This document shows, piece after piece, positions 22,663 to 64,000 of a stretch of DNA of 64,000 nucleotides. Made by a program: the position numbers and the translations under genes. Numbering within the stretch: the stretch's first letter is position 1; each line of letters opens with the position of its first letter. The notes under the pieces were generated by a model. It was not told where the DNA came from and did no database searches. It saw only the letters and a program-made list of their open reading frames with translations. This DNA comes from Escherichia phage ECML-183-2. The stretch lies in the sequence record OL631481.1; one strand, given 5' to 3'.

Positions 22663-22670
22663 GAATATTT

Positions 22671-23406: not shown

Positions 23407-23407
23407 A

Positions 23408-23665: not shown

Positions 23666-23683
23666 TCTACCACCTTACAAATA

Positions 23684-23738: not shown

Positions 23739-23741
23739 ACC

Positions 23742-36120: not shown

Positions 36121-36470
36121 AAAATATTATTGATGTAGATGTGTTTGGTATCACAACACTACAAGACAAACAAGCAACATTGTATTATCATAAAAAAGAG
36201 GACCAAGCTTACATCTACATCGGGGCAGAAAAGTTTGGTGTCGGAGATATGGTTTTAAATGTTGAAGGAGATCTTCCTTTAGAACAAAAGTTGAAAGTTT
36301 TTCGTTTCACAGGAGATGTTAAACTAGACGGCGTTATCGCAATCCTACAAGAAGACCATTATTATATGGTAACTTTCGTTACTCCTGCTTTCTCTGGCCT
36401 TAATGGAGAAGACGCTCTTAATGATGTTATTATCTTAAAGATTGGTAATGCTCTAAACGATGTAAACTAA
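36117..36470 (+). CDS. hypothetical protein (118 aa)
   Basis: TTG start after GGGAGGAG RBS, overlapping upstream stop. Confidence 0.4.
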   Translation: MKNIIDVDVFGITTLQDKQATLYYHKKEDQAYIYIGAEKFGVGDMVLNVEGDLPLEQKLKVFRFTGDVKLDGVIAILQEDHYYMVTFVTPAFSGLNGEDALNDVIILKIGNALNDVN

Positions 36471-36483
36471 AGGGGGAGTGAGT

Positions 36484-36993
36484 ATGTTCTTTGATGCAAA
36501 TTCTCTTTTTGTATCTACAGCAGGGCAGTCTGCTGTTAATGCAGAATTTGAGGAAAGAGAAGAATGGATTGATAATCACAACTACGATCCAGGTAATTTA
36601 AACTGGTGCAGTTTGGATGTTGGTAATCTTAGTCGAGATAATGCACTTAGAGCATACTACTCTGTATATACTGTTGACAATCTTTATCAATACTACGTGT
36701 TTCGTAGTCTTATTGTTAATCTTAATTTAGCTGGACGTTTAAAGAACAATAAGGCATTCACATTGGGACATTATATTCCCTTCCGTAAAGGGGGTGTGCA
36801 TTTTCCATGTAATTGGATCATTCAAACACGAAAAGAAAACAGTTTAGCAGGAGACACCATGCCAAGATTTAAAGATAAGTGGACATGGGAAAAACAAATG
36901 GGATACATTAATGCACATTTGCCACCTAATCTAAAAGAACCTTACGCCAGCAGAGCTAAGGAAATGATGAGGATTGTCAAGAGTTTTTATTAA
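36484..36993 (+). CDS. HNH endonuclease
   Basis: GHYIPFRKGGVHFPCNWIIQTRKEN fits the HNH H..P..GG...N....N pattern. Confidence 0.6.
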   Translation: MFFDANSLFVSTAGQSAVNAEFEEREEWIDNHNYDPGNLNWCSLDVGNLSRDNALRAYYSVYTVDNLYQYYVFRSLIVNLNLAGRLKNNKAFTLGHYIPFRKGGVHFPCNWIIQTRKENSLAGDTMPRFKDKWTWEKQMGYINAHLPPNLKEPYASRAKEMMRIVKSFY

Positions 36994-37007
36994 GAGAGGA
37001 GAAATAC

Positions 37008-38600
37008 GTGTCTACACAATTGAGTTTTACACCTACCGATGAACAATACGCTATTGAAAGTGGGTATCAAGAAAATCGTTTCGTTACAATTCAAGCTAAA
37101 TCTGGATCAGGTAAAACGTCAACACTGTATATGTTGGCTAATGGCACAAATGATAGTATTCTATACTTGGCGTTTAACAAAAGTATGGCAGAGGAAGCTC
37201 GACGTAAAATGCCGCCTAATGTTATGTGCCGAACGCTACATTCAATCTGTTACCAGCGTCTTCCACAAAACCTTCGACACAAATTGTCTCGTCCAGAAGG
37301 TCAATATGTTAACGTAGCTGGAACTGGTAGTGAGATTGCCAAAAAATTCAAGATTCAGAATTTGATTGATAAGAATGGTAAAGTGCTACTGACTCGTGCA
37401 ATGATCGGGTTAATGGTAAAACAAACTTTAGCTAAATATGAGTTTTCTGACGATGAACATATTGGACATAAACATTTTCCTAAAGTGCATATGTCAGATC
37501 TTAAACGTAAGAACATCAACGAACAAAAACTTATTAATGAAGTTGTTAAATATGCGAAGCAACTTTGGCGTGAGCGTATTGATCCTAAATCAGAAACCAT
37601 TATGACTCATGACACCTATGTGAAACTCTTTGAATTGAGTAAAGAAGATTTAGGATACGATATTATTTTTGGAGATGAATTCCAGGATGTTAACCCTGCA
37701 TTCCTGTCTATCCTTCGCAATGCTAAATCGGCTAAACGTATTGTTGTTGTGGGTGATGAATTTCAGAGTATTTATCAGTTCCGTGGAAGCCAGAACATGA
37801 TGAAGCAAACGGCTACATATGGGGTTGAGTTGCCTCTGACAGCTTGTTTTCGCTTTGGTCCTAAAGTTGCGGACATTGCCAATGCGATCCTTTCTGATCG
37901 CTCACCTCTGAAGCATCCGCTGGTAGGCAAAGGTTATGATACTGTCACTGGAAGTTTTCATTCTGATGTGGTAGATTATAGTAAACCTTACACCATTATT
38001 TTCCGTAAGAATTTGACCCTGTTGCTCGAAGCTATGGATCGAATCGCTAACGGAGAAGAGATTATTATTAACGTAGATACCAAAGATTTCATTTCTATGG
38101 TTGATAGTGTTAATGCTTTACGTAGAGGTGATTTGGACAAAGTTAAGCATGAGACAGTTCTACCTTACACTTCTTGGGAAGAATTTGTAGAGTGTGCAGA
38201 ATCAGATCCTGATGCAAAACGACTTTTAAACATTGTTGTTTCTGGTAAAGCTAATAATATTGCATACACTTTACGTATGCACCGTAACTCTCCAACGGCT
38301 AAAGTTACTTTAACTACGGCCCATAAATCAAAAGGTTTGGAGTGGGATCAGGTTATTGTTGCAAATGACTTTCCTTCTAATTATGATAAGAAGGGTGAGT
38401 GGGTAGGTCTTGAAGAATCAGAACGAAATCTTCTGTATGTTGCACATACACGTTGTATTAAATGTCTACAATGGAACCGGACTGTTCAAGAGATTCTAGA
38501 CATGCATCGTTTAGGTAAGAGCACGGCTCCTGTATCCGAAGAAGATAAACTTATAGCTGCCCTTGCTCGTAAGATTAATCAAATCAGAGAGGATCGTTAA
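37008..38600 (+). CDS. SF1 DNA helicase (UvrD/Rep-like)
   Basis: GTG start; Walker A GSGKTST, motif II IFGDEFQD, motif III VVGDEFQSIYQFRGS. Confidence 0.75.
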   Translation: MSTQLSFTPTDEQYAIESGYQENRFVTIQAKSGSGKTSTLYMLANGTNDSILYLAFNKSMAEEARRKMPPNVMCRTLHSICYQRLPQNLRHKLSRPEGQYVNVAGTGSEIAKKFKIQNLIDKNGKVLLTRAMIGLMVKQTLAKYEFSDDEHIGHKHFPKVHMSDLKRKNINEQKLINEVVKYAKQLWRERIDPKSETIMTHDTYVKLFELSKEDLGYDIIFGDEFQDVNPAFLSILRNAKSAKRIVVVGDEFQSIYQFRGSQNMMKQTATYGVELPLTACFRFGPKVADIANAILSDRSPLKHPLVGKGYDTVTGSFHSDVVDYSKPYTIIFRKNLTLLLEAMDRIANGEEIIINVDTKDFISMVDSVNALRRGDLDKVKHETVLPYTSWEEFVECAESDPDAKRLLNIVVSGKANNIAYTLRMHRNSPTAKVTLTTAHKSKGLEWDQVIVANDFPSNYDKKGEWVGLEESERNLLYVAHTRCIKCLQWNRTVQEILDMHRLGKSTAPVSEEDKLIAALARKINQIREDR

Positions 38601-38852
38601 ATGGCAGGGTATCACATAACAGACATTAAGAAACAACCTTATGGCAGCATAGAAAAGATTAAAGAGGAAGTAGAAGAACTTTTTGATGCTGTTGAACAGG
38701 ATTGCAAAATAATGCAACTTGTTGAATTATCAGATATTATAGGGGCTGTTGAAGGAGTTTTAGAACAACAGTTCCCAGATATGACTTTACAAGATTTAAT
38801 CATTATGTCCGGCATTACTAAACGCGCTTTCCGCACAGGAGGAAGATCATGA
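38601..38852 (+). CDS. MazG-like nucleotide pyrophosphohydrolase (small all-alpha type)
   Basis: EEVEEL...ELSDIIGAVEGVLEQ pattern; 83 aa. Confidence 0.45.
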   Translation: MAGYHITDIKKQPYGSIEKIKEEVEELFDAVEQDCKIMQLVELSDIIGAVEGVLEQQFPDMTLQDLIIMSGITKRAFRTGGRS

Positions 38853-39403
38853 ACGTAGCTGTTATTGCTCAAGCTATTGATTACTACGGGCGATTTGCGG
38901 AGATGTTGGAAGTCCCTTATCTTGTAGATGCGGATATCCTTGCATATACATTACCAGAAGGTAAAGAGGATCGCCCCTTGGGGCATCCTAATGGTAAGTT
39001 CTACGTAGCCAGTGCAGAGCAGTCTTTCCTCCAGATGGAGAAAGATGGGTTTGAATTTTCAACAGATCATCCTTATATGGCTCTAACACCTTGCTACCGA
39101 ACAGAAGAAGAGTTGGATGATGCTCATTTTAACATTTTCTTAAAGTTGGAAATTATTGAGTTTTATCCAGGAGCGTCCGTCAAAGAATATGCCGAAACTA
39201 TGCGCTATTTCTTTTGGACGTATTACAAAGTTCAAACTCAAATCATAGAGACAGATATTGGTCTTGACGTGGAAGATATGTATGGGTTAGAATTAGGTTC
39301 GTTTGGGATGAGAACTTCTCCACAAGGTCATCCATATTTATACGCCACTGGTATCGCAGAGCCTAGGGCATCTATTGCAATAAAACGAGGAGGGTTATTA
39401 TGA
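38849..39403 (+). CDS. hypothetical protein (184 aa)
   Basis: CAGGAGGAAG RBS. Confidence 0.5.
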   Translation: MNVAVIAQAIDYYGRFAEMLEVPYLVDADILAYTLPEGKEDRPLGHPNGKFYVASAEQSFLQMEKDGFEFSTDHPYMALTPCYRTEEELDDAHFNIFLKLEIIEFYPGASVKEYAETMRYFFWTYYKVQTQIIETDIGLDVEDMYGLELGSFGMRTSPQGHPYLYATGIAEPRASIAIKRGGLL

Positions 39404-40761
39404 ATGTATATGCACATAAGCAAGATTTGGTAACAGCGGCAAACAATCGGGGCTTGTTCGATAGGCTTTGCAAAGCTATTGAGATTGCATATGGTTGGAC
39501 TAAAGAGACAGATCCTAAACTTACAGGACAATATGCTCTTTTACACGGTTGCACAAATTTTCCATACATCTGTCACACAGTCGGGACCGATGAATTTTCT
39601 GGAGAGCCGACAATAGGAGATAATGAACTACGTTTTACAGGAGATGCAATGCTAGATTTAATTTTTAAGAAAACTAAAATGCTAAAAATTGAAGATGTTT
39701 ACACAGACACTAGTAACCTTTCTGAAGAAGAAATTGGAGAAATGATTACTACTTTCAATAATACAACAGGGAAGAGTTTTTGGACTAAAAGCGATGCTTC
39801 CCGTCTTAAACGAGTAGACCCTGCTATTCCAGAAGACGGTAAGAAGTATCGAAAAGTTATCTTTTACGATAAAATGGCAGGTCTGGATGCTCTACATCTT
39901 GAGTGTGGAAGCCTTGTGCCTCCGGCTGTTAGAGAACATGAATTTGCAGTTGAGGTTGAAGCACAGGAGTTTAAAGATATGTTTTATACTAAGCATGTAA
40001 GAAAAGTGGAAGATGTGGAACAACAAAAAGAGACTTTTGAACCAGAAGACACAGAGCCTACCTATATTCCTAATACAGGTGTTATGCCTTCAGAAGATTT
40101 CGTGCAGGTTCGCTTCAACAACGGTAAAACAGAGGTTGCTAAGGGGACAGTATTCAACTGGAGTGTTGACAATAATCACGATCTGGAAGAATGGGCGATT
40201 AAAGAATACTTCATTCTCCCGCGCACGGCAAAATACAACTATCATAATGGTGGACACCGCCCTTGTGGTGGTCACGTAGAAGTTCTCTTCCGTGACGGAA
40301 CTACGGATAGTGGATCGGCTACGCATTTCACTTGGGGTCATCATGAACAGGATCGGGATATTGTTGGTTGGCTTCCAACTAACAACCCTAAACCACGTTA
40401 CCGCAAGCGTCGTCAGAAGCCGCCAGTAGGTAAGAAGAGTGTCGTTCGTGTCCTCTACACTACACAACAGACCTACACATTTAAAAATGTGGTAGACGTG
40501 CAAGTGACTGAGGAGCGAGTTTATATCCAATATGATCGTGAAGTTACAGAGGGTATCAAAGAATCGGTTACTACCGAAATTGAAAATAAGCTTGTTATGG
40601 CGATCATTGTGGAAGAAAGTAAAGTAGAGAACGGTAAAGCCTACACTGTTCGTGATAGCTTCTTGCGTAATATCGATGGAACTTGGGATTATAATGGACA
40701 TGATGGGACCGCTGTAAAGAACGGTAAGATTATGGGAAGACAATTCCTCTCCAAACGATAA
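39400..40761 (+). CDS. hypothetical protein (453 aa)
   Basis: long ORF; GAGGAGGG RBS; no recognised motif. Confidence 0.55.
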   Translation: MNVYAHKQDLVTAANNRGLFDRLCKAIEIAYGWTKETDPKLTGQYALLHGCTNFPYICHTVGTDEFSGEPTIGDNELRFTGDAMLDLIFKKTKMLKIEDVYTDTSNLSEEEIGEMITTFNNTTGKSFWTKSDASRLKRVDPAIPEDGKKYRKVIFYDKMAGLDALHLECGSLVPPAVREHEFAVEVEAQEFKDMFYTKHVRKVEDVEQQKETFEPEDTEPTYIPNTGVMPSEDFVQVRFNNGKTEVAKGTVFNWSVDNNHDLEEWAIKEYFILPRTAKYNYHNGGHRPCGGHVEVLFRDGTTDSGSATHFTWGHHEQDRDIVGWLPTNNPKPRYRKRRQKPPVGKKSVVRVLYTTQQTYTFKNVVDVQVTEERVYIQYDREVTEGIKESVTTEIENKLVMAIIVEESKVENGKAYTVRDSFLRNIDGTWDYNGHDGTAVKNGKIMGRQFLSKR

Positions 40762-51948: not shown

Positions 51949-52743
51949 ATGTCCGAGAAAATCAGCCTGAAAAAACGTCAAGAAAACCTTGCTTTCTCTC
52001 TGAAAAAGAATAAGAACCTGAATGAAGGTAAGATTGTTCTTCGTGTAGCATGTGCTCTAGATATTTCTGGTAGTATGCACGGTCTATATTCTAGTGGGGT
52101 AGTGAGTGATTTTGTAGGTAAACTGCTTCCTTTTGGTATGCTGTTCGACGATAATCAACAAATTGATATGTGGGCCTTCAATACGAGTTCCCAAGAGCTT
52201 ACTCCAGCAACAGCAGACGTTTACGATGACTATGTTGGTAAATGTATGCGTAATGTTCGTATCGGAGGTGGAACAAATTACGCCCCTGTAATGGCAGATA
52301 TCTACGATGAGTATTTTGGCACTGTTACCAAATATATTACCACTAAACAAGTGGTACAAGAGGAGGCTCCAAAGAAAGGCTTCTTTAATCGTCTGCTTGG
52401 TAAAACTGAAACAGTGTCTGTAGAGCGTGAAAAAGTTGTAGCTGTATCTGAACCAGGTGCTGATGTTACCCCTGGTGTTGTATTCTTCCAGACGGATGGT
52501 GAGAATGGTGATCCTAGTGCTGTTCGTCGTCTTATTGAAGAGAATAAGAATAAACCTATTTATTGGTTCATGGTTGGCGTTGGTAATGAGAAGTTTGGCT
52601 TCCTGAAAGAACTGGCAAATGCTTATGATAATGTTGGTTTTATTGGCATTAAAGATTTAGACTTGACAGATTCAGAACTTTATGACAAACTCTTATCTGA
52701 GGAGTTCGGAGAGTGGGTTGTTAAAGTAGGTGCTAAAAAATGA
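51949..52743 (+). CDS. vWA-domain protein (TerY-like)
   Basis: MIDAS motif DISGSM; GGTNYAPVM; sits in ter-like cluster. Confidence 0.65.
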   Translation: MSEKISLKKRQENLAFSLKKNKNLNEGKIVLRVACALDISGSMHGLYSSGVVSDFVGKLLPFGMLFDDNQQIDMWAFNTSSQELTPATADVYDDYVGKCMRNVRIGGGTNYAPVMADIYDEYFGTVTKYITTKQVVQEEAPKKGFFNRLLGKTETVSVEREKVVAVSEPGADVTPGVVFFQTDGENGDPSAVRRLIEENKNKPIYWFMVGVGNEKFGFLKELANAYDNVGFIGIKDLDLTDSELYDKLLSEEFGEWVVKVGAKK

Positions 52744-52988
52744 TCGACGAGCTTGCCTCTCAAGTCGTAGAAAATTATTGGCGCGAGAGAGAAGCTTTCA
52801 TTATGCGCAGTCTCAAAGAGTATTTCATTGGGACTGTGCGAATGGAAGATATTGTAAGTAGAGTAGAGATTCATGTATGGCCCGATTATGAAGAATGGGT
52901 TGACAAAGAAAATGAAAATGCTATAATTCTTCGTATATACAAACCGGAGATAACATTAGGAGGAAGAAGTGTTAAACTTCGAAATTGA
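52740..52988 (+). CDS. hypothetical protein (82 aa)
   Basis: AGGTG RBS. Confidence 0.45.
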   Translation: MIDELASQVVENYWREREAFIMRSLKEYFIGTVRMEDIVSRVEIHVWPDYEEWVDKENENAIILRIYKPEITLGGRSVKLRN

Positions 52989-53238
52989 TGAGCAAAAAGT
53001 AAATAAACGATGCCTTACCATTAAAGATTTGGATGTAGGAGATACTTTCGTCTATGAAAATGCATTTGACGAAAATGGTTTAGACCTTAGTGAAATCATT
53101 GTTTATTTAAAAGTAGATGATGGGGAAAATGATTATTCTGCTGTAGAACTAAACCATCATGCACAATTAGTATCAATCCAAAACACATCTAAGCTTTTGG
53201 AAGTAGAATTGACTGTAACTGGTATTACACTTAAATAA
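52969..53238 (+). CDS. small paralog protein preceding TerD gene
   Basis: GTG start after AGGAGG; paralog of 51669-51947. Confidence 0.45.
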   Translation: MLNFEIDEQKVNKRCLTIKDLDVGDTFVYENAFDENGLDLSEIIVYLKVDDGENDYSAVELNHHAQLVSIQNTSKLLEVELTVTGITLK

Positions 53239-53253
53239 TAGAGGAGACAAAAG

Positions 53254-53856
53254 ATGACTGATAAAATTTCCCTGAAAAAAGGCTCTAGCGAAAAAATTTC
53301 CCTGAAGAAAGTTGCTCCGGCTCTGAAAGAACTGCGCCTGGAATTCTCTTGGAAATCTGATTCTAAACTGGATCTGGATGTAAGTGCACTGGTTTGTCGT
53401 CATAATGCCGCTGGCAATCCTGAAATGCTGTCCGCACGTCATCTGGTTTGCTATGCTAACAAGTTTGATCCTGAACGTTCTACCTTCGCTGGTGACGATG
53501 TTCGTGATGGAACTGGGAGCATGGAGCAGATTGATATTACTCTGGCTAAAATCTCTCCTGATGCACAAGAGATTGCCTTTGTTCTGACCATTGATGATGA
53601 TACAGGTCTGAAACGTTTTGGTCATGCTTCTGAAGGTATGCTTAAAATCTTCGATTCCGAGCGCAATGTGGAAATTCTGGATTTTGACTTCCTGGCTCCT
53701 GAAGTAGCTGGCAACACAATCTGCCACGTGGCTTCCCTGGTTCGTGAAGATGGGGAATGGAAGCTGAAAGCATATGGTGTAGGTAAAGCTGGTCTGGATA
53801 TTTGCGATGTGGTGATGGCCTTCGGTGGTAAAAAAGAATGGTATGAATGTCCATAA
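53254..53856 (+). CDS. TerD-domain protein
   Basis: ISLKK...LDLDVSALV...GDDVRDGTG...FVLTIDD pattern typical of TerD; strongly host-like codon usage (CTG, AAA, GAA). Confidence 0.75.
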   Translation: MTDKISLKKGSSEKISLKKVAPALKELRLEFSWKSDSKLDLDVSALVCRHNAAGNPEMLSARHLVCYANKFDPERSTFAGDDVRDGTGSMEQIDITLAKISPDAQEIAFVLTIDDDTGLKRFGHASEGMLKIFDSERNVEILDFDFLAPEVAGNTICHVASLVREDGEWKLKAYGVGKAGLDICDVVMAFGGKKEWYECP

Positions 53857-53874
53857 TAATTAACAAATGATTTT

Positions 53875-53894
53875 GAGGGGGAGAAATCCCCCTC
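53875..53894 (+). terminator. strong hairpin, probable terminator
   Basis: GAGGGGG-agaaat-CCCCCTC followed by TTGCAAT (imperfect U-tract). Confidence 0.4.
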
Positions 53895-53923
53895 TTGCAA
53901 TAAAGCCTCTATCGTGTTATACT
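53895..53923 (+). promoter_or_regulatory. extended -10 promoter
   Basis: TTGCAA ... TGtTATACT upstream of cell-wall hydrolase gene. Confidence 0.45.
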
Positions 53924-53955
53924 AGAAGTTCGTTAACTTAAAAAGGAGGCAAAAT

Positions 53956-54477
53956 TTGCTGATAAAAAACTTTGTAACAGTTGCGTTACTATCCTTAACT
54001 GCTTTTACATTTACACCTGTTGTGGCGAAAGCCGAAGCTGCAAACGTAAAAACCGCTAAAGTAGTTCACAAATGTACAAAGCAATATAATGATAAAATTC
54101 TATTAGCTTGTGCAATTTACGCAGAAGGTCGTGGTCTGGGTAAAAAAGGAATGAATGCCGTTGGGAATGTGGTAATCAACAGAAGAAATGATGCCTACTT
54201 CCCTAACACAGTCAAGGGAGTCTTGTTCCAGAAAGGGCAATTCTCATATGCGAAAACTTTTAACGTAACAGAGAAAGATAAGTGGCAGGAAGCAAAAGCA
54301 ATAGCGGAGCGTTTACTTTATTTAGAGAAACATTTTCCTGAATTGCGGTCTGTTTTAGATGTTACTAAAGGTGCTCTATACTTCAAGAAACGGAATATAA
54401 GGACACACTGGGAACGTGATATGCGTCTTGTTTATCGAGATAAAGTGCATGGTTTCTATCTACCAAAGGGGAGTTAA
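53956..54477 (+). CDS. secreted cell-wall hydrolase (SleB-like)
   Basis: TTG start after AAGGAGG; signal peptide; CAIYAEGRG...VVINRRND...FQKGQFSY pattern. Confidence 0.6.
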   Translation: MLIKNFVTVALLSLTAFTFTPVVAKAEAANVKTAKVVHKCTKQYNDKILLACAIYAEGRGLGKKGMNAVGNVVINRRNDAYFPNTVKGVLFQKGQFSYAKTFNVTEKDKWQEAKAIAERLLYLEKHFPELRSVLDVTKGALYFKKRNIRTHWERDMRLVYRDKVHGFYLPKGS

Positions 54478-54478
54478 A

Positions 54479-54763
54479 ATGCAAGAAGATAATACTGTTG
54501 TTGTAGCAAGTTACCTGGTTGTCGGTCTTACCGAAGAGGATGTATACTACACCCGTAAGCATTTAGAAGCATACGCTACTTTGTTTATGGAAGATGAAAA
54601 GGATGTAGATAAATATAGCATTGATATGATCAACGACAGTATTTATCCTTGTATGGTTCTTAAAGTAGATGCTGTATTGTGGGAGCGTTTTGCAAGGACT
54701 CATGATGCTGTAGAATGCTCCGCAGTAATGTCTCAAAACAATATTTTAGGGGAGATTCACTGA
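54479..54763 (+). CDS. hypothetical protein (94 aa)
   Basis: start at ATG after AAAGGGGAG RBS. Confidence 0.45.
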   Translation: MQEDNTVVVASYLVVGLTEEDVYYTRKHLEAYATLFMEDEKDVDKYSIDMINDSIYPCMVLKVDAVLWERFARTHDAVECSAVMSQNNILGEIH

Positions 54764-54993
54764 TGGGAGAAGTCATTGAAGTCAATTTTCGCACTAAACA
54801 GAAAGTGCAAAAATATGTCGTTATTAAAAACATTTGCGTTGTCTGCTTCAATACAGTAATATACGATTCACGACGCGGAGAAAACGAAAATGAACCTTAC
54901 ATTGAAATTTCTAAAAACAAAGGTCAATGTATTTGTAAGAACTGTGCAGTAGCTATTAAGGAGGTTGTAAATGAAAACGCTTGGGACCAATGA
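54763..54993 (+). CDS. small zinc-ribbon-like protein (76 aa)
   Basis: ATGA overlap; CVVC ... CKNC pairs. Confidence 0.45.
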   Translation: MGEVIEVNFRTKQKVQKYVVIKNICVVCFNTVIYDSRRGENENEPYIEISKNKGQCICKNCAVAIKEVVNENAWDQ

Positions 54994-55162
54994 AACTGGC
55001 GAAATCTCTCTTCAAGAAGTGACAAACGACAAACTGATTAAGCTACGAGACGTAGCTCGTGACCATCTTCAAGAATCTTTTAAAGAATACATGGAAGCAC
55101 GAGATCGTGTCATCCAGATTCAACAAGAAATGATTAAACGTGGGATTGTAGCCGACAGTTAA
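54971..55162 (+). CDS. hypothetical protein (63 aa)
   Basis: AAGGAGG RBS. Confidence 0.45.
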   Translation: MKTLGTNETGEISLQEVTNDKLIKLRDVARDHLQESFKEYMEARDRVIQIQQEMIKRGIVADS

Positions 55163-55178
55163 TATAACGGAGGGGAGA

Positions 55179-55742
55179 ATGATTTATTATATTACTCCCT
55201 ATCTGACAGGAAATATCGGCAAGGCTATCAATGAAGCCATTGCCGTTCTTCCAGATGATAGTTGGGTGTGTTTAAGAGATACCGATACAATGTTCCTCCT
55301 ACCTGATCAACCATCTATGCTTGAAGAGCTTGTTATGTCAAACCCGCCTTTTGATGTAATAGGTGCAACTTGTAACAGGTTAGGTAGTGGTTATCAGCTT
55401 TTCTCTAACCAAATTAACGATGATCCAGATATTCTAAACCATATAGAATATGCTAAGATTGCAAGAGAATATCATAAAGTGAGTGTTGAAGAAGTTCCTT
55501 TCGGAACACCTCTGGCAGGTTTCTTTTTGCTTTTTAGAAAATCATTGTGGAATGAAATTCCTTTCGAAGAAAAATCTATCCAATTCGACTTAATTTTCTC
55601 TCGCACTTTACATGAAAAAGGAAAGAGGTTAGGATTGATGCGGGGAATGTATCTGTTTCACATTTACAGATTAGGTCAAACAAATCCTCAACGGTCTATA
55701 CATCATTTATTACACTGTCATGATCACAGTAAAACTATTTAG
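55179..55742 (+). CDS. putative glycosyltransferase (GT-A-like)
   Basis: LRDTDTMF DxD-like motif; GGGGAGA RBS. Confidence 0.4.
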   Translation: MIYYITPYLTGNIGKAINEAIAVLPDDSWVCLRDTDTMFLLPDQPSMLEELVMSNPPFDVIGATCNRLGSGYQLFSNQINDDPDILNHIEYAKIAREYHKVSVEEVPFGTPLAGFFLLFRKSLWNEIPFEEKSIQFDLIFSRTLHEKGKRLGLMRGMYLFHIYRLGQTNPQRSIHHLLHCHDHSKTI

Positions 55743-55750
55743 GAGAGAAA

Positions 55751-56434
55751 ATGGAAAATATTAAAATCGGAGTGGGTGTTATCACTGTAGGTGTCCGTCC
55801 GCTTAAAGACTACCTTGTAACAGATCCACGTGCAGATTTTCGAGTATTCAACGATCCAGATCGTAAAGGTGTAGCTTATGCCAGGAATGAACTTATGCAC
55901 CAGTTTTATGAAGAAGGTTATGATTATTGGTTTATTTTTGACGACGATTGCTACCCAGTCATGGAAGGATGGGAAACATACTTTGTAGATCAAGCTGTTT
56001 CTGGAGGATGGGATTTCTTTGGTATGCCGGAGTACTTCAAAGATAAAGTTGTTGGAAGCAAAGGAGAAGTTATTCTCTGGGAACTTGCAATGTGTCAATT
56101 TGCAATGTATTCTCGTGCCGTTGTTGAGAAGATGGGTTATTTCCGCCCTTACACTCACGGTTATGGTTTTGAAGATGCCGAATGGGGACACCGTTTGAAA
56201 GCTGCTGGTTTGAATCATGGTATTCAGGCAACACCTTGTCCGCTTCGTATCATGGCTTATATCCACCCAGACGATGTTTTTGGAAACAATCCTATGCCTT
56301 TTGCTAATCTGACAAAAGAAGAGAAAGAAGCTGCTATTGGGATTAACTGGGAAGAATATAAAGCATCTTTAGAGGATATTAAAAATGGGAAAATCCGAAT
56401 TTCTTATGAGGAGGCACTAGCACATGTCAAATAA
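55751..56434 (+). CDS. glycosyltransferase family 2-like protein
   Basis: FIFDDDCYP (DxD) and GYGFEDAEWGHRL motifs. Confidence 0.6.
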   Translation: MENIKIGVGVITVGVRPLKDYLVTDPRADFRVFNDPDRKGVAYARNELMHQFYEEGYDYWFIFDDDCYPVMEGWETYFVDQAVSGGWDFFGMPEYFKDKVVGSKGEVILWELAMCQFAMYSRAVVEKMGYFRPYTHGYGFEDAEWGHRLKAAGLNHGIQATPCPLRIMAYIHPDDVFGNNPMPFANLTKEEKEAAIGINWEEYKASLEDIKNGKIRISYEEALAHVK

Positions 56435-57371
56435 AAAATGGACTAAACTGAAAATTGATGCAAAACCCCACAGTGGTTGTGATTATCATCGTATTGTTAT
56501 ACCATTTAACAACAATAATTTTCAGCCTAAGAAAGATGTTGTCGTGTTTAACCGTATTCATTCTAAAGGGGCAGAATACGTTCTGTCCCTGAAACGTCAA
56601 GGTGTTAAGATTGTTGTAGATTTAGATGATTTCTACCAACTTAATCCAGAACATTATTTAGCAAGTTTATATGAGTCAAACACTCGTGCTATTGTAGCTA
56701 TGGTTAAGCTTGCCGATGTGGTCATTGTGACTACGGAATATTTGGCATATAAGATCCGTCACTTAAATAGGAATGTTGTTGTAATCCGAAATGCACTTCC
56801 TTTTGATAGCGGACAATTTACTTTGTCAAATGACCGTTCATCCGGTACCCCTATTGTATGGGCTGGAGGTGCTAGTCATGAACCTGATTTACGACTAGTC
56901 TCTAACACTTTTGATGATGAACTTCTTACTATTGCGGGGTATGAAGCTTCGCAGAGTATCACAGGGCAAGAGTGGATTAAGATCCGTAGAAATTTACCAA
57001 ATGCCAAATATAAAGCTGCTGTAAAAGATTTAGATAATTACATGAGTGTTTACGAAAGTCATGCTATTGCTATAGCTCCTTTGGTAGACAATGATTTTAA
57101 TAATTGTAAAAGTAATCTCAAAATCCTTGAAGCTGGGGCAAAAGGTATTCCGATTGTTTGTTCTAAGGTATTACCTTATTTTAACCCTGTAGATGCTCGC
57201 GCTGTTGCTTATGCAGAGAATAAAGCAGAATGGCATTACGAAATTGTTAAGCTTCTTCGCAATCCGAACTATCGGGAAGATCGCGGCTTGTTCTTAGCGG
57301 AACATGTTCGAACACATTATAATCTGGCAGATGCAAACGAATTGCGACGCCAGGTTATTGAAAGTTTGTAG
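56424..57371 (+). CDS. GT-B fold glycosyltransferase (paralog 1)
   Basis: C-terminal NNCKSNLKILEAGAKGIPIV motif; paralog of 57379-58323. Confidence 0.55.
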   Translation: MSNKKWTKLKIDAKPHSGCDYHRIVIPFNNNNFQPKKDVVVFNRIHSKGAEYVLSLKRQGVKIVVDLDDFYQLNPEHYLASLYESNTRAIVAMVKLADVVIVTTEYLAYKIRHLNRNVVVIRNALPFDSGQFTLSNDRSSGTPIVWAGGASHEPDLRLVSNTFDDELLTIAGYEASQSITGQEWIKIRRNLPNAKYKAAVKDLDNYMSVYESHAIAIAPLVDNDFNNCKSNLKILEAGAKGIPIVCSKVLPYFNPVDARAVAYAENKAEWHYEIVKLLRNPNYREDRGLFLAEHVRTHYNLADANELRRQVIESL

Positions 57372-57378
57372 GTGAAGT

Positions 57379-58323
57379 ATGGGACAAATAATTCTTGACA
57401 ATCGTAACGGAATCAATTATAGTGTCTGCGATTTCCATAGGGTATTGCTGCCTTACTCAAGGCAGTTCTCTTCACAACCTAAACACAACGTTTTCGTTTT
57501 TAACGGAGTGCCAACAAAAGGTAAAGAGGGCTTTTTAGCCCTTAAAAACCTAGGTTTTAAAATGGTTATGGATTTGGATGACTCGTTAGTTATTCCAAAA
57601 GGACACATGTTAGAAGGTATTTTTGAATCAGGTATTCGTGAACATTTAAAATGGTTTTTAGAGCACAGCGATCTTGTTACAACTACGACACCTGCTTTGC
57701 AAGTTGAACTTTCACAATACAATGATAATGTGCACATAATCCCTAATGGACTTCCTTACGATGAAGGTCAATTTGTGTTGACCCGTGATCGCTACTCCAA
57801 AACTCCATTAGTCTGGGCTGGAAGTGAAACACATAAACAAGATTTGGCTATCTTGCCCGATTTTGGTAAAGATCTTACAATATGTGGTTTTCGTAGGGAT
57901 TCTGAAGTTTTAAGTAGTCGTGAATGGTCTGTAATCAGAGAAAATGTAGCACCAACTTGTGTTTATGAAGGTGTAAGACCATATGCCAACTACATGGAAT
58001 CTTACGATGGTCATCAAATCAGTCTTGCACCATTGATCGATAACGTGTTTAATAATGCAAAAAGCAATCTTAAAATTCTTGAGGCAGGTGCTAAGGGTTT
58101 ACCTTTAATCTGCTCTCCTCGTGAGAATTATCATACACAAGAGTTTAAAGATTTGTTATTCTTTGCTGAAACACCTTCCGAGTGGAAAGATATTACGGAA
58201 TACTTATTAAGTGCTCCCGATGTTTGCATGGAGAAAGGATTAGCATTAGCTAAGTATGTCAGGACTCATTATCACATTGATGTGTTGAATGAGCGTCGTA
58301 GACTTTTATTTGAGGAGCTATAA
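57379..58323 (+). CDS. GT-B fold glycosyltransferase (paralog 2)
   Basis: NNAKSNLKILEAGAKGLPLI motif; collinear similarity with 56424-57371. Confidence 0.55.
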   Translation: MGQIILDNRNGINYSVCDFHRVLLPYSRQFSSQPKHNVFVFNGVPTKGKEGFLALKNLGFKMVMDLDDSLVIPKGHMLEGIFESGIREHLKWFLEHSDLVTTTTPALQVELSQYNDNVHIIPNGLPYDEGQFVLTRDRYSKTPLVWAGSETHKQDLAILPDFGKDLTICGFRRDSEVLSSREWSVIRENVAPTCVYEGVRPYANYMESYDGHQISLAPLIDNVFNNAKSNLKILEAGAKGLPLICSPRENYHTQEFKDLLFFAETPSEWKDITEYLLSAPDVCMEKGLALAKYVRTHYHIDVLNERRRLLFEEL

Positions 58324-58601
58324 TGATTAACACTTTTGATTTTGAATACACCACTCGTAACGGGAAAGCCTTGGTTGTGGAGGTGGATTACTATTATGAA
58401 GAACCTAATCCACTTTCTCGTGAAAGCGATTGGGATTACCACGGAGGGCTTTTAATTGACGGTATTCGTTTTTATGAAGGATCTACAGAAGTTTTTGAAA
58501 AAGATTTAAATGTAACTGTAGCAGAAATTGCTTTCCAATTTAGAAAGCACATGGAAGAACTAGAAGCAGAATATATGATGGAGACTAACGAACCATTTTA
58601 A
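58323..58601 (+). CDS. hypothetical protein (92 aa)
   Basis: GAGGAG RBS. Confidence 0.5.
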   Translation: MINTFDFEYTTRNGKALVVEVDYYYEEPNPLSRESDWDYHGGLLIDGIRFYEGSTEVFEKDLNVTVAEIAFQFRKHMEELEAEYMMETNEPF

Positions 58602-58613
58602 CAGGAGAACAAA

Positions 58614-60392
58614 GTGTCGCACATTATAACTAAATATGGATTTGATGTTGATCTTAGCAAGGAAGGGCATACAGGTTGTCCGCGCTGCATGAAAAATGGC
58701 AAGGATCGCTCTCGTAATAACCTGATGGTTTATGGATTAGATTCTAATGGAGAGCATAAAGGTGCTAAGTGCTTTGCGTGTGAATACACTATTCCTAGCG
58801 TAGAATGGTTACGAGAAAATGGTGAAGTTTTAGAAGAAGAGGAGGAGATTGTGGGTTCGGAATTTAATAAACAGATTCATCGTAAAATTGTTCAAGAAAC
58901 ATCAACCAACCCACGTGGTTATCGAGGCATTAAAGAAAAAGTTTCATCTTTCTATGGTGTTCGTTATGAATATCGTCAGGAAGGGGATCAGATGGTAGTA
59001 GAAAGTTGTTTATATCCAACTACTATCGGTAAAGAATTGGTTGGTTTTAAGCGTCGTATTCATCCTAAAGATTTCAGTAAACCTATTGGTCAAGTAGGTA
59101 AAGATGTAGATCTTTTTGGACAAATTCGTTTTGCAGACCGTTCTCATACTGTGGTAATTACAGGTGGTGAACACGATGCTCTGGCAGCTTATCAAATGCT
59201 GTCTGAAAACTTGGACAACAAATATGAACTTCCAGCAGTAGTTAGTGGCACAACTGGTGAAACCAGTATGTATAAACAAGTTCAGGCACAATACCCTTTC
59301 TTTGAAAAATTTAAGAAGATTATTGTTTGCATGGATAATGACAAAGCAGGTAATGAGGCATTTGAAAATATTGTTAAGGTGCTGCCTCGTAACAAAGTCT
59401 ACCGTATGCAGATGGATCTTAAGGATGCCAATCAGTATCTGGAAGAAGGTCGTGCAAAAGATTTCGTAAAAGCTTTTTGGAGTGCTCGTCTATACACCCC
59501 AGCAGGTGTTTATGCTTCTAATGTCTTGTATGAAGCTGCATTAGAATGCTTGGAATCCAAGATGATTACCTTGCCTCCTTTTATGCGTGTTGCTGCAAAT
59601 ATGCTGGGTGGTGGTTTAGTAGAGGAAGAGATTACAGTCATCCTGGCAAAGACCAGTATCGGTAAAACTTTGATGGTGAACGAGATCACCAAACATATTA
59701 TCGTTGCACACCCAGAACATACCCTCGGTATTCTGTCATTGGAAGCAACTTATAAGAAATATTCTCGTAACCTGTTGTCCTCGTTCCTGCATATTCCTCT
59801 ACACAGGAAAACACCGGAAGAGAAATTTCAAATCTTGGAAGAGAATAAAGAAAAAATCCTAGATTTTTACGAAAGAGAAGATGGATCACCACGTTTTTAT
59901 GTGTGTGATGATCGTGGAGCAGATGTGGAGTCTATCAAAGAAAAAGTTTTGGAGATGATCATCTATTTTGGAGTAACAATTCTTGTTATCGACCCTTATT
60001 CTGATTTGCTTTCTGGTATGGATGTTCAAGCCCAGGAAGAGTTAGCAACATGGTTGAAGCGCATCATGAAAGAGTATGCTATAACTATTATCGTCATCTC
60101 ACACGTTAAGAAATCGGCTAATGGTGGCAATGAACACTTAACAGAGGACGATGCAATGGGTAGTAGTTTCTTGGCTAAAGGTGCTGGTATTACCTTGGCT
60201 TTGGAACGAGATAAAGCCGCTGAAGACCCTGTAGAACGCAATACGACTCATTGCTTTATCCTAAAAAACCGTGAGTTCTCGGAAACGGGTCCGGCAGGGC
60301 AGTTTTACTATGATATTAGAACTGCAACTCTGCATGACAAAGAGCAGTATTTCAACAATCCTGCTAATTTGCCTACGGATAGCAATTATTAA
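58614..60392 (+). CDS. bifunctional DNA primase-helicase (T7 gp4-like)
   Basis: GTG start; N-terminal CPRC...CFAC zinc ribbon, TOPRIM-like TGGEHDALAA, helicase Walker A AKTSIGKT and Walker B VLVIDPYSD. Confidence 0.8.
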   Translation: MSHIITKYGFDVDLSKEGHTGCPRCMKNGKDRSRNNLMVYGLDSNGEHKGAKCFACEYTIPSVEWLRENGEVLEEEEEIVGSEFNKQIHRKIVQETSTNPRGYRGIKEKVSSFYGVRYEYRQEGDQMVVESCLYPTTIGKELVGFKRRIHPKDFSKPIGQVGKDVDLFGQIRFADRSHTVVITGGEHDALAAYQMLSENLDNKYELPAVVSGTTGETSMYKQVQAQYPFFEKFKKIIVCMDNDKAGNEAFENIVKVLPRNKVYRMQMDLKDANQYLEEGRAKDFVKAFWSARLYTPAGVYASNVLYEAALECLESKMITLPPFMRVAANMLGGGLVEEEITVILAKTSIGKTLMVNEITKHIIVAHPEHTLGILSLEATYKKYSRNLLSSFLHIPLHRKTPEEKFQILEENKEKILDFYEREDGSPRFYVCDDRGADVESIKEKVLEMIIYFGVTILVIDPYSDLLSGMDVQAQEELATWLKRIMKEYAITIIVISHVKKSANGGNEHLTEDDAMGSSFLAKGAGITLALERDKAAEDPVERNTTHCFILKNREFSETGPAGQFYYDIRTATLHDKEQYFNNPANLPTDSNY

Positions 60393-60412
60393 GGGCTTCG
60401 GCCCTTTTATTA
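60392..60412 (+). terminator. rho-independent terminator
   Basis: AAGGGC-ttcg-GCCCTT followed by TTTATT. Confidence 0.6.
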
Positions 60413-60423
60413 AAAAATACCTG

Positions 60424-60452
60424 TTGACAACTTTACGGAAGGGACTTATACT
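60424..60452 (+). promoter_or_regulatory. sigma70-like promoter
   Basis: TTGACA-N17-TATACT. Confidence 0.6.
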
Positions 60453-60485
60453 TGTCTCATCAACCAAACAAGAGGAGAAGTAAAA

Positions 60486-60917
60486 ATGCGTATGACAATC
60501 GATCTGAATGCAAAAGTTAAAGCTGCTGGTGCTCTGGGTGCTGGTGTTATTAAACACAAACAAGCGTTGGCATTTGCCATCCCACATATGATTGTTGAGG
60601 ATCATCCTGAAGAGTTTGCTGTAAAAGTTGTTGAGAACAATGTCTCTGTTATTGAACATCTTCCAACTGGACGTTCTTACCGTGTTGTTTCTTCTAAAGG
60701 TTTCCGTTTCGATGTAAGCCCTTCTTTCACAAAAGGTGCTGGTCGTAGTAAAGTGGGTATTCTTTCTTACAAATATTATATCGATAAAGTTGCAGATGGT
60801 GTTGCATTCTGTCGTGTAAGTGAAGGTAAAGTAGATATCATCTTTAAAAATACCAAAAACATGGTTATTTCTGACGATGGTAAAGTTGACCTCACTATTG
60901 AGTTCGCTAACAACTAA
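60486..60917 (+). CDS. hypothetical protein (143 aa) with host-optimised codon usage, probably abundant
   Basis: dedicated promoter and upstream terminator; AGAGGAGAAG RBS; CTG/GGT/AAA-biased codons. Confidence 0.6.
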   Translation: MRMTIDLNAKVKAAGALGAGVIKHKQALAFAIPHMIVEDHPEEFAVKVVENNVSVIEHLPTGRSYRVVSSKGFRFDVSPSFTKGAGRSKVGILSYKYYIDKVADGVAFCRVSEGKVDIIFKNTKNMVISDDGKVDLTIEFANN

Positions 60918-60926
60918 GGAGGACTA

Positions 60927-61721
60927 TTGAGCAAGTTGAACACACTTGATCAATATTACACTAACCCCGCTTATGCGGGGTTCTTATGTGATAAGATCAA
61001 AGAAATTTTTGGAGAGGAAGCTAACTACGTAGAACCATCTGCGGGAGAAGGAGCTTTCTCTTCTTGTTTTAAAAACATAACTTCTTTTGATATTGACCCT
61101 AAGTTTGAAGATTGTATTGAGGCAGATTTTTTAGCTCAATCTGTTGAGTCTGTTGGTAGTGTAACTGCTTTTGTCGGTAATCCTCCGTTTGGAAAAAATG
61201 CTAGTCTTGCCATTAAGTTCTTTAACCATTGTGCTGAAATGTTGGATAACGAAGGTGGTATTTGTTTTATCTTGCCTCGCACATTTCAAAAAATCTTTTT
61301 TGCACACAAATTAAATCCCCATATGCATCTTCTTTACGAAGAAGAATGTCCAAAAGGATCTTTTATTCTTCATGGAGAACCTTGGGATGTTCCTTGTGTA
61401 TTCCAGATATGGATTAAACGCAATGAGAAGCGTTCTCCTGTTGTTTTAGGAGAGAATCGACTATTCGTATTAGGCAACAGTAAAGACTACGACATAGCCG
61501 TTAGGAGAGCGGGAGCAAGTGCAGGTAAAGTGTTATCAGAAGAAGATTCTTTATCTGAAGCATCTACCTATTTTTTAAAAGCCTTGACTTCTGATCTTAA
61601 AACGCGTATCATTGAGGCTTACCCGTTACTTAAAGCTGAAGCTAGTAAAACTGCGGGAGTAAGAAGTTTAAGTTTAAAAGAACTTCAGTGGGTTCTGGAG
61701 AACATTAGAAAGGAGGAATAG
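60927..61721 (+). CDS. DNA methyltransferase (amino-methyltransferase with NPPF motif, probably N6-adenine)
   Basis: TTG start after AAGGAGG; motif I EPSAGEGAF and motif IV NPPF. Confidence 0.7.
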   Translation: MSKLNTLDQYYTNPAYAGFLCDKIKEIFGEEANYVEPSAGEGAFSSCFKNITSFDIDPKFEDCIEADFLAQSVESVGSVTAFVGNPPFGKNASLAIKFFNHCAEMLDNEGGICFILPRTFQKIFFAHKLNPHMHLLYEEECPKGSFILHGEPWDVPCVFQIWIKRNEKRSPVVLGENRLFVLGNSKDYDIAVRRAGASAGKVLSEEDSLSEASTYFLKALTSDLKTRIIEAYPLLKAEASKTAGVRSLSLKELQWVLENIRKEE

Positions 61722-64000
61722 TGAGTAAGTTTACATGGGATATTGAAGCAAACGGATTGTTGAATAATGACACTATCGATTATTTAGCTAGTCCTTATCG
61801 TCTCAAAGATACATTTCAAATGCACTGTATTGTCTTAGAGAACCATGAAACAGGAGAAATAGTAGCTTTCCACGATGGCCCTAAATACATCTTTGATGGG
61901 CGTCCTTATGAAGAGTCAGATGGTAAATACACATATGTTCTTAAAGAGTATGTGGCGCAGGATTACACGCATTTTCAACTAAAAGATTTCCCAGACTTTA
62001 TTAATCATGAAGGTTATTTTAAAGACAAGCCTGAATATCTGGTTGAAATGGCTGTGGCTCACAACGGTATCAACTACGACTGGTTGGCTACAAAACTGTT
62101 TTATGGATTAGATTACAGTGTTAAATATAATACGTGGGGCAAAAATAAGGTAAAACTTATTGACTCCTTGATTTTGAGTAAAGTGTTAAACCCAGATCGA
62201 AAGATTGAGGGCAAATCAGGACATAGCTTGGCAGCACTTTCTCGAAAAGCAGGTGGTGATGTAAAAATAGATTTCCGTAAAGAGATTCCAGAAGAAGATC
62301 GATTTAAGACTTTTGCTGCGGATATGCTTTATTACTGTATCTATGACAACAAAGCTAATACGAGCGTATATAATTACCTTATGGAAGAATGGGGCGATTA
62401 TCACAAATGGGAAGGTCCATTTGAACTTGAACAACGTGTAGCAGACATTATTACACGCCAGGAACACCGTGGGTTTGCTTTTAACATGAAACAAGCAGAA
62501 GAGAACCTTGCTTTTTTGGATGCAGAAATGGAGCGTCTTCGTTTACTCGTTGAGCCTATTTTGCCACCTAAACCAGCAACAAAAGGTTATCTTAAAGCTT
62601 TTATTCCACCTAAGTTGCAAATTAAAAAGAACTTAGAGCCAACTAACCATATGATCAATTTTGCTAAAAAACATGATGGTCGTTTGGAAGAGAGGGATGG
62701 AGATTGGTGGTTAGTTATGCTGGGGAAAGAGTGGAAACTGCCAGTTGCAGCAGATGAACCTCTATGTGATCCTCACATCCCTGCAACATTGAACGATACA
62801 ACCCATATTAAAAACTGGCTTGTAGGATTAGGTTGGGTACCGTCTGAATATAAAGATAAAGACTTGACTCTTAAATCTGGCACCAAGATTAAAAAGAGCG
62901 AGGAAGAACTTCAGAAAGGTATTCGAGCTTACGTTGAGCAAACTTTATCTTCTAATTTTTGTCAGGACCGTTGTGATCATCTGGAGTGCACACCGGAAAC
63001 CTTGGAAAGGAAGATTCAAGAGCGTATAGCAAAAGGTAAAGGTCGCGGTCTTAAAGTATTGACTAACCCATGTTTTACCAAAGGTCAGGAAAAAGAAATC
63101 TGTCCTAACCTGCAAGCTTTGGGTGAGAAATTCCCTTATGCTACACAGATTGTAGAATACTTAACGTATAAGCATCGTAGGAACTCTATTTTAGGTGGCG
63201 GTGCTGATTGGGAAGAAGATGAAGAAGATCAAGAATACGATAAAGGTTTCTTAGCCGCAGTAAGGGCGGATGGTCGTATTCCTACCCCAGCAGCTACATG
63301 TGATGCTGCAACCTCTCGTATGAAGCATAGGTCTGTAGCTAACATTCCTCGTGTCACATCTTTGTTTGGATGGGAGATGCGTAACTTGTTTGGTGTAGAG
63401 GTTCCTAAATACTTCCAGATCGGCTACGACTTCGACTCTTTGGAAGCAAAAATTGAATCACACTACTGTTGGCGGTACGAGCCGGAGCCACATGAATATT
63501 GTAACGCTCTGTTGTTAGAGAAACCTAACGATGTTCACACAATGATGGCAAAACGTATCACTGAAACTATTGGACGTAAATTTGAACGTAGTCCTGCTAA
63601 ATCTGTTAAGTATGGTATTACCTATGGTGCACAAGCCGACAAGGTTGCTAAAACAATTGGTAGCGATAAGTTTACAGGTCAATTGGTGTTTGATGCTTTC
63701 TGGGAAGCTGCATTCCCACTGGCACGTCTTAAAGAACGTTTAAACGATTTCTGGGTTAAGACTGGTAAACAGTATGTTTTGGGTATTGACGGTCGTAAGG
63801 TTCCTACTCGTTCTGCTCACGCGATTCTTAACTCTCTGTTCCAAAGTGGTGGGGTTATCTGCGCTAAACGTGCAATGGTTATTTATGACGACATGATCGA
63901 AGAAGAAGGGCTAAGTGTTGACTTCTTTAAAGATGACTGGAAGAATAAAGACTTCGTGCAACAAATGATTGCATACCACGATGAAGCCCAGCTTGAAGTT
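61721..64000 (+). CDS. family A DNA polymerase (T7-like), partial, continues beyond window
   Basis: GTG start overlapping methyltransferase stop; exonuclease motif WDIEANGL; motif B-like RSPAKSVKYGITYG; no stop before window end. Confidence 0.8.
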   Translation, partial: MSKFTWDIEANGLLNNDTIDYLASPYRLKDTFQMHCIVLENHETGEIVAFHDGPKYIFDGRPYEESDGKYTYVLKEYVAQDYTHFQLKDFPDFINHEGYFKDKPEYLVEMAVAHNGINYDWLATKLFYGLDYSVKYNTWGKNKVKLIDSLILSKVLNPDRKIEGKSGHSLAALSRKAGGDVKIDFRKEIPEEDRFKTFAADMLYYCIYDNKANTSVYNYLMEEWGDYHKWEGPFELEQRVADIITRQEHRGFAFNMKQAEENLAFLDAEMERLRLLVEPILPPKPATKGYLKAFIPPKLQIKKNLEPTNHMINFAKKHDGRLEERDGDWWLVMLGKEWKLPVAADEPLCDPHIPATLNDTTHIKNWLVGLGWVPSEYKDKDLTLKSGTKIKKSEEELQKGIRAYVEQTLSSNFCQDRCDHLECTPETLERKIQERIAKGKGRGLKVLTNPCFTKGQEKEICPNLQALGEKFPYATQIVEYLTYKHRRNSILGGGADWEEDEEDQEYDKGFLAAVRADGRIPTPAATCDAATSRMKHRSVANIPRVTSLFGWEMRNLFGVEVPKYFQIGYDFDSLEAKIESHYCWRYEPEPHEYCNALLLEKPNDVHTMMAKRITETIGRKFERSPAKSVKYGITYGAQADKVAKTIGSDKFTGQLVFDAFWEAAFPLARLKERLNDFWVKTGKQYVLGIDGRKVPTRSAHAILNSLFQSGGVICAKRAMVIYDDMIEEEGLSVDFFKDDWKNKDFVQQMIAYHDEAQLEV

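Follow-up and report, generated by a model that had tools for sequence, protein, structure and literature searches.

Introduction

What is encoded by the small, conspicuously equipped gene that lies between the primase/helicase and methyltransferase genes of Escherichia phage ECML-183-2? The sequence analysed is a stretch of 64,000 nucleotides from record OL631481.1, called the window here, and the gene is the open reading frame (ORF) 60486–60917, which encodes 143 amino acids. The initial annotation had described it as an insulated and probably highly expressed gene without an assigned function. An abundant early protein, such as a DNA-binding or DNA-mimic factor, or a recent acquisition from the host had been proposed. 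The ORF was found as annotated, and its product is very probably a DNA-acting protein. We consider it likely that this product is a GTAC-specific restriction-type nuclease directed against the DNA of the host or of competitors. The protein is most likely a homodimeric type II restriction endonuclease of the PD-(D/E)xK fold, remotely related to R.RsaI and recognising GTAC. The following gene most likely encodes its cognate N6-adenine methyltransferase, which would probably yield GTm6AC.

The 4.5 kb surrounding the ORF are 98.8–99.3% identical to Escherichia phage phAPEC8 and other Phapecoctavirus (Stephanstirmvirinae). The counterpart in phAPEC8 is phAPEC8_00189, labelled 'hypothetical protein'. 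The family is labelled 'hypothetical' throughout the phage records examined, and 185 records contain a match. The gene order is primase/helicase (58614–60392), the small gene, the methyltransferase and DNA polymerase I. The methyltransferase gene is labelled 'putative DNA N6-adenine methyltransferase' in the phAPEC8 record.

Results

Predicted fold and probable relation to RsaI

An AlphaFold model of the 143-residue protein (pLDDT 88.6) showed the PD-(D/E)xK nuclease fold, with the alpha-beta-beta-beta-alpha-beta nuclease core present. This structure prediction, which had been suggested as a check, agreed with a protein acting on DNA. The proposal of a DNA mimic was abandoned because the confident model is a nuclease fold and no acidic mimic. 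In the PHROGs collection the protein matched only phrog_9938, 'unknown function'. When the model was compared with predicted viral structures using Foldseek, its own orthologues were followed by two more proteins (one unnamed, one rV5-like) and then by the 'R.RsaI endonuclease' of Synechococcus phage Syn19. The latter was the only named viral match outside the orthologues (E 3.8e-3, probability 1.0, TM 0.66). The target of RsaI is GTAC.

A profile–profile comparison (hhalign) with the Syn19 RsaI-like family gave an E value of 6e-4 but a probability of 28%, over the C-terminal 57 columns only. It aligned the loop F-(D/N)-x-x-P-S-x-x-x-G-x-G-R, which is the best conserved part of both families, and the helix and hairpin after it. 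In the window protein the loop reads F75-D76-x-x-P79-S80-x-x-K83-G84-x-x-R87. Across 17 family sequences the only invariant residues are P33, P79, S80, G84, R87 and G132. An AF2 model of the RsaI-like family (pLDDT 50.9) was too poor for locating catalytic residues. An earlier study assigned the PD-(D/E)xK fold to the RsaI family as a prediction of its lowest confidence level (PMC2441816). The small gene is under purifying selection, with a dN/dS of about 0.10 between the window and the related locus L042 (comparison loci are given L numbers).

Recent acquisition from the host was not borne out either. A distant blastn search of the gene against 5,426 E. coli genomes gave no match, the G + C content at third codon positions (GC3, 0.26) is phage-like, and the few homologues are all on phage contigs. 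A profile search of a 5.8-billion-protein set added just one family member. A bacterial-genome scan with the signature motif returned only a chance match in a Sphingomonas epimerase-like ORF and one mis-binned phage contig. This contig (L041, JAEZZU010000159.1, 'MAG: Proteobacteria bacterium') encodes a 100% identical small protein followed by the methylase, and is phAPEC8-like phage DNA that was assigned by binning to a bacterial metagenome-assembled genome (MAG). About 20 'Campylobacter phage' records (MG0656xx) hold rV5-/phAPEC8-type sequence with 98–100% identity to coliphage genes and are probably mislabelled or contaminated.

Other identities were tried and rejected. CheX, found when PDB sequences were searched with the protein and with its profile (E 0.5), was dismissed as a match. 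For an archaeal-type Holliday junction resolvase (Hjc), neither the invariant E-D-E-K catalytic set nor a phage-resolvase role was found. A PabI/HpyAXII restriction glycosylase was excluded by the lack of the half-pipe fold. A single-stranded DNA-binding or replication accessory protein, as suggested by the gene position, was ruled out by the fold and the methylase pairing. A virion protein was rejected too: the 'predominant' gp133 of the rV5 proteome paper differs from the homologue, rv5_gp097 / ORF 101.

The methylase partner

The methyltransferase carries motif I as EPSAGEGAF and motif IV as NPPFG, and it starts 10 nt past the stop codon of the small gene. The small gene and the adjoining methyltransferase are a two-gene module, a conserved pair that the initial annotation had missed. 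The two genes adjoin each other in at least seven divergent phage lineages. Adjacent methylase orthologues with 37–54% identity were found in L007, L009, L012, L013, L016, L017, L019, L042 and the rV5-like phages. Every distant homologue of the small gene has such an orthologue beside it. Among the distant metagenomic phages, the small proteins show 27–35% identity to that of the window, the methylase lies directly downstream (37–44% identical), and the stop and start codons of the two genes often overlap. The rV5-like phages carry the pair in the opposite order, with a 38-nt overlap. In the syntenic region of PVP-SE1, the methylase, the small gene and gp098 are all missing, and the small gene is absent from the primase–polymerase junction of phiWec181 and EmilieFrey. 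The methylase would be the cognate modification enzyme of the small protein, acting on GTAC. Protection by an adenine methylase is chemically reasonable because GTm6AC blocks RsaI (PMC2588503), though M.RsaI itself makes m4C (PMC6256690).

Two lineages (L026–29 and L030–32) have the nuclease gene without the methylase in the stretches seen, and a methylase elsewhere in these genomes is possible. Both lineages are close relatives of the window phage, with primase-helicases that share 66% and 77% identity with its own. Given these lineages, the addiction rule, by which the nuclease never occurs without its methylase, does not hold. In the methylase-less lineages the small gene is a self-contained unit, and in L004 and L020 it has a promoter, GAGGAG and a terminator right after the stop codon. 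Its neighbours there are unrelated, Pfam-negative small ORFs: one of 112 aa after the nuclease gene in L004 (6475–6813), and ORFs of 116–130 aa before it in L020 (5173–5933; L020/L021).

The genes downstream of methylase homologues in the cyanophages S-CAM7 and P-SSM2 were rejected as relatives of the small protein, as they are the N-terminal halves of split methylases. In both phages (L022 3034–3435 for S-CAM7, L023 3054–3452 for P-SSM2) an ORF that runs from NPPF to the C-terminus is followed by an overlapping N-terminal ORF with the S-adenosylmethionine motif (DNSAGSGNF). The split enzyme looks like a permuted or two-piece methyltransferase.

GTAC depletion

Occurrences of GTAC were compared with the counts expected under a maximal-order Markov model, on both strands (Table 1).

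Table 1. GTAC in genomes with and without the small gene and the methylase. The rows with the small gene only represent two lineages.
Sequence	Gene content	Observed/expected count	Ratio	Remark
Window (64 kb)	both genes	73/196	0.37	most depleted of 256 4-mers
rV5 (50 kb)	both genes	77/152	0.51	most depleted of 256 4-mers
Metagenomic loci	both genes		0.10–0.63	
Syn19	RsaI-like gene and methylase		0.41–0.54	
EmilieFrey (phi92-like)	neither gene		0.84	rank 24
PVP-SE1	neither gene		0.78	
phiWec181	neither gene		0.65	
L026 (20.4 kb)	small gene only	0/89.8		sole absent 4-mer
L027	small gene only	0/80.6		
L030 (11.1 kb)	small gene only	0/33.3		sole absent 4-mer

The depletion tracks the small gene and not the host, because the relatives without the gene are barely depleted and the genomes with the small gene only are free of GTAC. 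It is total exactly where the methylase is missing. Codon usage was controlled by synonymous-codon shuffles, which gave 48.4 ± 5.1 GTAC in the genes of L026 (0 observed) and 62.5 ± 5.3 in the plus-strand genes of the window (17 observed). An E. coli K-12 sample held 139 GTAC against 155 expected, or 2.8 sites per kb. There is no depletion in K-12 and therefore the host is full of targets.

The residual sites of the window are unevenly spread. Near expectation, 21 lie in 16–24 kb (16001–24000), among small minus-strand ORFs; none lies in 36–40 kb (36001–40000) and only 6 in 52–64 kb (52001–64000). Selection against GTAC may be weaker in the accessory early region, or this region may be younger. 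Other words are missing from some of the phages compared. CTAG is absent in 50 kb of the Phapecoctavirus phiWec181 (L034, LC739534.1 60001–110000), a hint that another site-specific pressure acts on this phage. In the 150 kb examined of Syn19 (L036–L038), CCGG is absent besides the GTAC depletion, and AGCT is strongly depleted (23–46 observed vs 115–146 expected per 50 kb).

Expression signals and codon usage

The promoter and the strong ribosome-binding site attributed to the small gene by the initial annotation were both present (Table 2). The promoter is among the two best sites within 56–64 kb, where promoter-like sites overall are not enriched (26 found vs 20.9 expected), and it is already given in the phAPEC8 GenBank record as a 'putative host dependent promoter'. 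L042, whose coding sequence is 82% identical (18% different), has retained the hairpin, the two hexamers and the ribosome site but not the sequence of the 17-nt spacer. The function of these elements is supported by this phylogenetic footprint. Analogous promoters stand ahead of the small gene in L004 and L020.

Table 2. Features of the small gene–methyltransferase locus in the window.
Feature	Coordinates	Strand	Basis
Hairpin AAGGGC-TTCG-GCCCTT followed by TTATT, right after the primase-helicase stop codon; candidate intrinsic terminator	60391..60411	+	sequence; kept in L042
Sigma-70-type promoter, TTGACA (60424–60429), 17 nt, TATACT (60447–60452)	60424..60452	+	11/12 consensus positions; phAPEC8 annotation; conservation in L042
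Shine-Dalgarno sequence GAGGAG, 8 nt before ATG	60472..60477	+	sequence; same motif in L004, L020, L042
Gene of the 143-aa protein, ATG start; phrog_9938; PD-(D/E)xK-fold, RsaI-like candidate GTAC endonuclease	60486..60917	+	sequence, profiles, model, GTAC counts
Ribosome site AAGGAGG of the methyltransferase, overlapping the 143-aa stop codon	60916..60922	+	sequence
264-aa gamma-class type II DNA N6-adenine methyltransferase, TTG start	60927..61721	+	PADLOC MTase_II PDLC03255, E 1.6e-36; phrog_5172/799

The upstream terminator was only partly confirmed. The hairpin with its T-rich tail is present and conserved, but its fold energy is weak (–9.3 kcal/mol; only z = –1.0 against shuffles), and it was not called by a terminator scan because the T-run beyond the full stem is short. 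A role as a terminator insulating the gene from upstream transcription is plausible from the sequence.

The codon adaptation index (CAI) was computed with the Sharp–Li E. coli weights. With a CAI of 0.509, the small gene is an outlier, second among the 122 ORFs of the window (mean 0.276, standard deviation 0.068; z = 3.4), and its neighbours reach only 0.21–0.33, as the annotation had indicated. The CAI of the methylase is ordinary (0.254). The bias rests on GGT (10/11), CGT (6/6), AAA (14/14), TCT (7/10) and GTT (12/18). Of the codons that had been named, GGT and AAA are thus borne out, but the case for CTG is weak, at only 2 of 6 leucines. The same shift had been claimed for the TerD-like ORF 53254–53856, which indeed ranks first (CAI 0.535) and uses CTG for 18 of its 19 leucines. 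This ORF belongs in the relatives L026 and L030 to a TelA / vWA-TerF-like / TerD cluster, and it looks like a second gene of the phage tuned for very high expression.

High codon adaptation of the small gene is a lineage-specific trait. The CAI is 0.50–0.53 in the window, L042 (0.50) and L004 (0.53), and only 0.35 in the L030 lineage. The rV5 homologue lacks its own promoter, and its CAI of 0.20 is under the mean of that rV5 stretch (0.25). All sequence signals in the window agree with an insulated gene read from a host-type promoter; its product is probably abundant, and it may be made early.

Discussion

Proposed mechanism

In the mechanism that we propose, the nuclease–methylase pair would be transcribed by host RNA polymerase from the strong promoter at 60424–60452. 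The output of nuclease would be large, with its strong ribosome site and optimal codons. That of methylase would be lower, with its TTG start and ordinary codons. The nuclease would cut unmethylated GTAC in the E. coli chromosome, which is undepleted at about 2.8 sites per kb, and co-infecting DNA would be equally exposed. The phage genome would be spared by methylation together with its few GTAC sites, and the methylase-less relatives by having none. The persistence of the depletion despite the methylase could reflect an imbalance of nuclease and methylase that leaves newly replicated DNA at risk.

Several observations weigh against a GTAC-cutting enzyme. The protein had no match among Pfam, NCBIfam, the PADLOC nuclease models and PDB sequences, and Foldseek gave no significant match of the model in the PDB. 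Homology to RsaI at the sequence level is weak, with hhalign probabilities of 21–28%. No acidic residue is invariant in the 17 family sequences. D76 is replaced by N in 4 of the 17 members, rV5 included, and K83 by L in one; positions D/E50 and E57 are only mostly acidic, while K/R66 and K83 are largely conserved. In a hand alignment, the E-x-K motif (VEGK) of the RsaI-like family falls on [R/S]-[Y/W]-[K/R] in the window family. Very high expression is unusual for a restriction enzyme, which turns over many times. Complete loss of sites could in principle also stem from a host restriction system acting on GTAC, as with other phages.

On the methylase-less relatives a further step can be proposed, to which we give slightly less than an even chance. 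In the phAPEC8 clade, the restriction enzyme would have been freed from its methylase and become a stand-alone, very highly expressed weapon aimed at the DNA of the host or of competitors, with self-protection solely by elimination of GTAC. The window phage would then be an intermediate, with its methylase still present and roughly a third of the expected sites left. In a variant of this idea, the protein would have lost its cutting activity and would coat GTAC sites of the host instead.

Alternative explanations

The coating function is also the core of the alternative that survives best, which we regard as unlikely. The protein would be descended from a restriction enzyme but would bind GTAC specifically without cutting it. 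Produced in stoichiometric amounts, it would coat the GTAC sites of the host, about 13,000 on the chromosome when extrapolated from 2.8 per kb. It would block host transcription or replication, or mark host DNA, and the harm from binding its own DNA would account for methylation or site loss. Such harmful binding explains the depletion as well as cutting does. The canonical catalytic acidic residues vary while the basic Ser/Lys/Arg loop is invariant, and for an enzyme the promoter strength and codon adaptation are less fitting than for a structural or stoichiometric protein made in abundance. However, the clade nearest the window retains E38, D/E39, D/E50, D76, K/R66 and K83, so an active site is possible. 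Pairing with a methylase, complete loss of sites and resemblance to RsaI are what the classical logic of a cleaving enzyme would lead one to expect. We know of no GTAC-coating system of this sort.

Somewhat less probable still is that the methylase serves as anti-restriction against host GTAC systems, that the depletion is driven by the host, and that the small protein uses its nuclease fold for an unrelated task in replication or recombination, such as resolving junctions or cutting DNA in a structure-specific way. The position of the gene between those of primase-helicase and DNA polymerase I would suit such a role, and complete avoidance of the site of a host enzyme does occur in other phages, as staphylococcal phage K avoids GATC completely. 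On the other hand, the gene-less relatives on the same E. coli hosts are barely depleted (0.65–0.84), and the depletion follows the small gene and is total where this gene stands alone. In addition, rV5 and PVP-SE1 already encode an endonuclease VII resolvase. Nor does the rV5 module of methylase, small gene and gp098 belong to the core replication machinery, since the syntenic PVP-SE1 lacks this cassette. The structural link to the GTAC enzyme RsaI would have to be a coincidence.

A free-standing homing endonuclease like I-Ssp6803I, inserted between conserved replication genes, is very improbable: the variable occurrence of the gene at the primase–polymerase junction, where it is missing in the close relatives phiWec181 and EmilieFrey, and its own promoter would suit one, but homing targets are long and rare and would not purge a 4-bp word across a genome, such enzymes are usually poorly expressed and poorly codon-adapted whereas the CAI here is the second highest in the window, and a methylase pairing stable over distant lineages together with a dN/dS of 0.1 misfits a decaying selfish element.

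Comparison with known systems

A restriction–modification pair remains the reading that we prefer, and its closest counterpart is gp153–gp154 of Syn19, annotated as 'R.RsaI endonuclease' and methylase. Both nucleases are small (143 aa here, 171 aa in Syn19) and have the F-x-x-PS-x-x-x-G-x-GR loop in common, besides the structural match given above. In both phages the nuclease gene adjoins a methylase gene of about 265–270 aa, which it overlaps in Syn19, and the genome that carries the pair is depleted of GTAC. In contrast, the sequence similarity is beneath ordinary detection, and the E-x-K motif is not conserved in the window family. The partner methylases are unrelated: that of Syn19 is a beta-class N6_N4 enzyme with SPPY, whereas that of the window is of the gamma class with NPPF. 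The gamma-class N6-adenine enzyme also differs from M.RsaI, whose product is m4C (PMC6256690). Unlike RsaI and its Syn19 relative, the window gene is highly codon-adapted and is preceded by its own strong promoter, and it occurs free of a methylase in some lineages.

HpyAXII and PabI act on the same inferred target word, are held off by GTm6AC and have a gamma-type adenine methylase as protector. However, R.PabI and R.HpyAXII are cellular DNA glycosylases of the half-pipe fold (PMC2588503, PMC5059719), whereas the window protein is phage-borne and of the PD-(D/E)xK fold.

The proposed use of the nuclease is like that of T4 EndoII and EndoIV and of T7 endonuclease I, early or middle phage nucleases that destroy host DNA and leave that of the phage intact. 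T7 endonuclease I has about 150 aa and is encoded beside the primase-helicase and polymerase genes. Self-protection differs: it is achieved by modified cytosine in T4 and by timing and structure specificity in T7, whereas methylation or absence of a 4-bp site is proposed here.

In the chloroviruses, CviQI cuts G^TAC and M.CviQI makes GTm6AC, and the nucleases degrade host DNA early in infection. M.CviQI is also mentioned in PMC2588503. As in these systems, a lytic virus would here use a 4-bp-specific nuclease and an adenine methylase offensively. Unlike the window phage, the chloroviruses infect eukaryotic algae, and the likeness meant here is one of function. Type II restriction–modification borne by viruses is thus already known, from the chloroviruses and from the annotated Syn19 pair. 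The features that appear to be new are the recognition of this family, its place in common therapeutic coliphages, and the series that ends in a methylase-less nuclease and a purged genome. To our knowledge, no methylase-less variant with a site-free genome has been described. A literature search on rV5- and phAPEC8-type phages returned no transcriptome and no proteome of infected cells, nor any paper that connects these phages with GTAC, RsaI or a restriction enzyme.

Phages of the Phapecoctavirus and rV5-like groups count among the coliphages most frequently isolated, and they are therapy candidates. If the proposal is right, these lytic phages carry a restriction system of their own that shreds host DNA and probably the DNA of co-infecting phages and plasmids. 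This would bear on the design of cocktails through mutual exclusion of phages, on the risk of transduction and on nucleotide scavenging. It would also provide a confident fold model for the structurally uncharacterised RsaI-type enzymes. The phages would form a natural series, from nuclease and methylase through a partly purged genome to a nuclease alone in a site-free genome. Such a series would show the discrimination of self from non-self shifting from epigenetic marking to sequence avoidance.

Other observations

Upstream of the primase-helicase gene, three successive ORFs of the window (55751–58323) correspond to glycosyltransferase / 'disaccharide synthase' genes in relatives, according to the annotation of EmilieFrey and weak Glyco_trans_1_2 matches. 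They may indicate a sugar-based modification pathway in this phage group.

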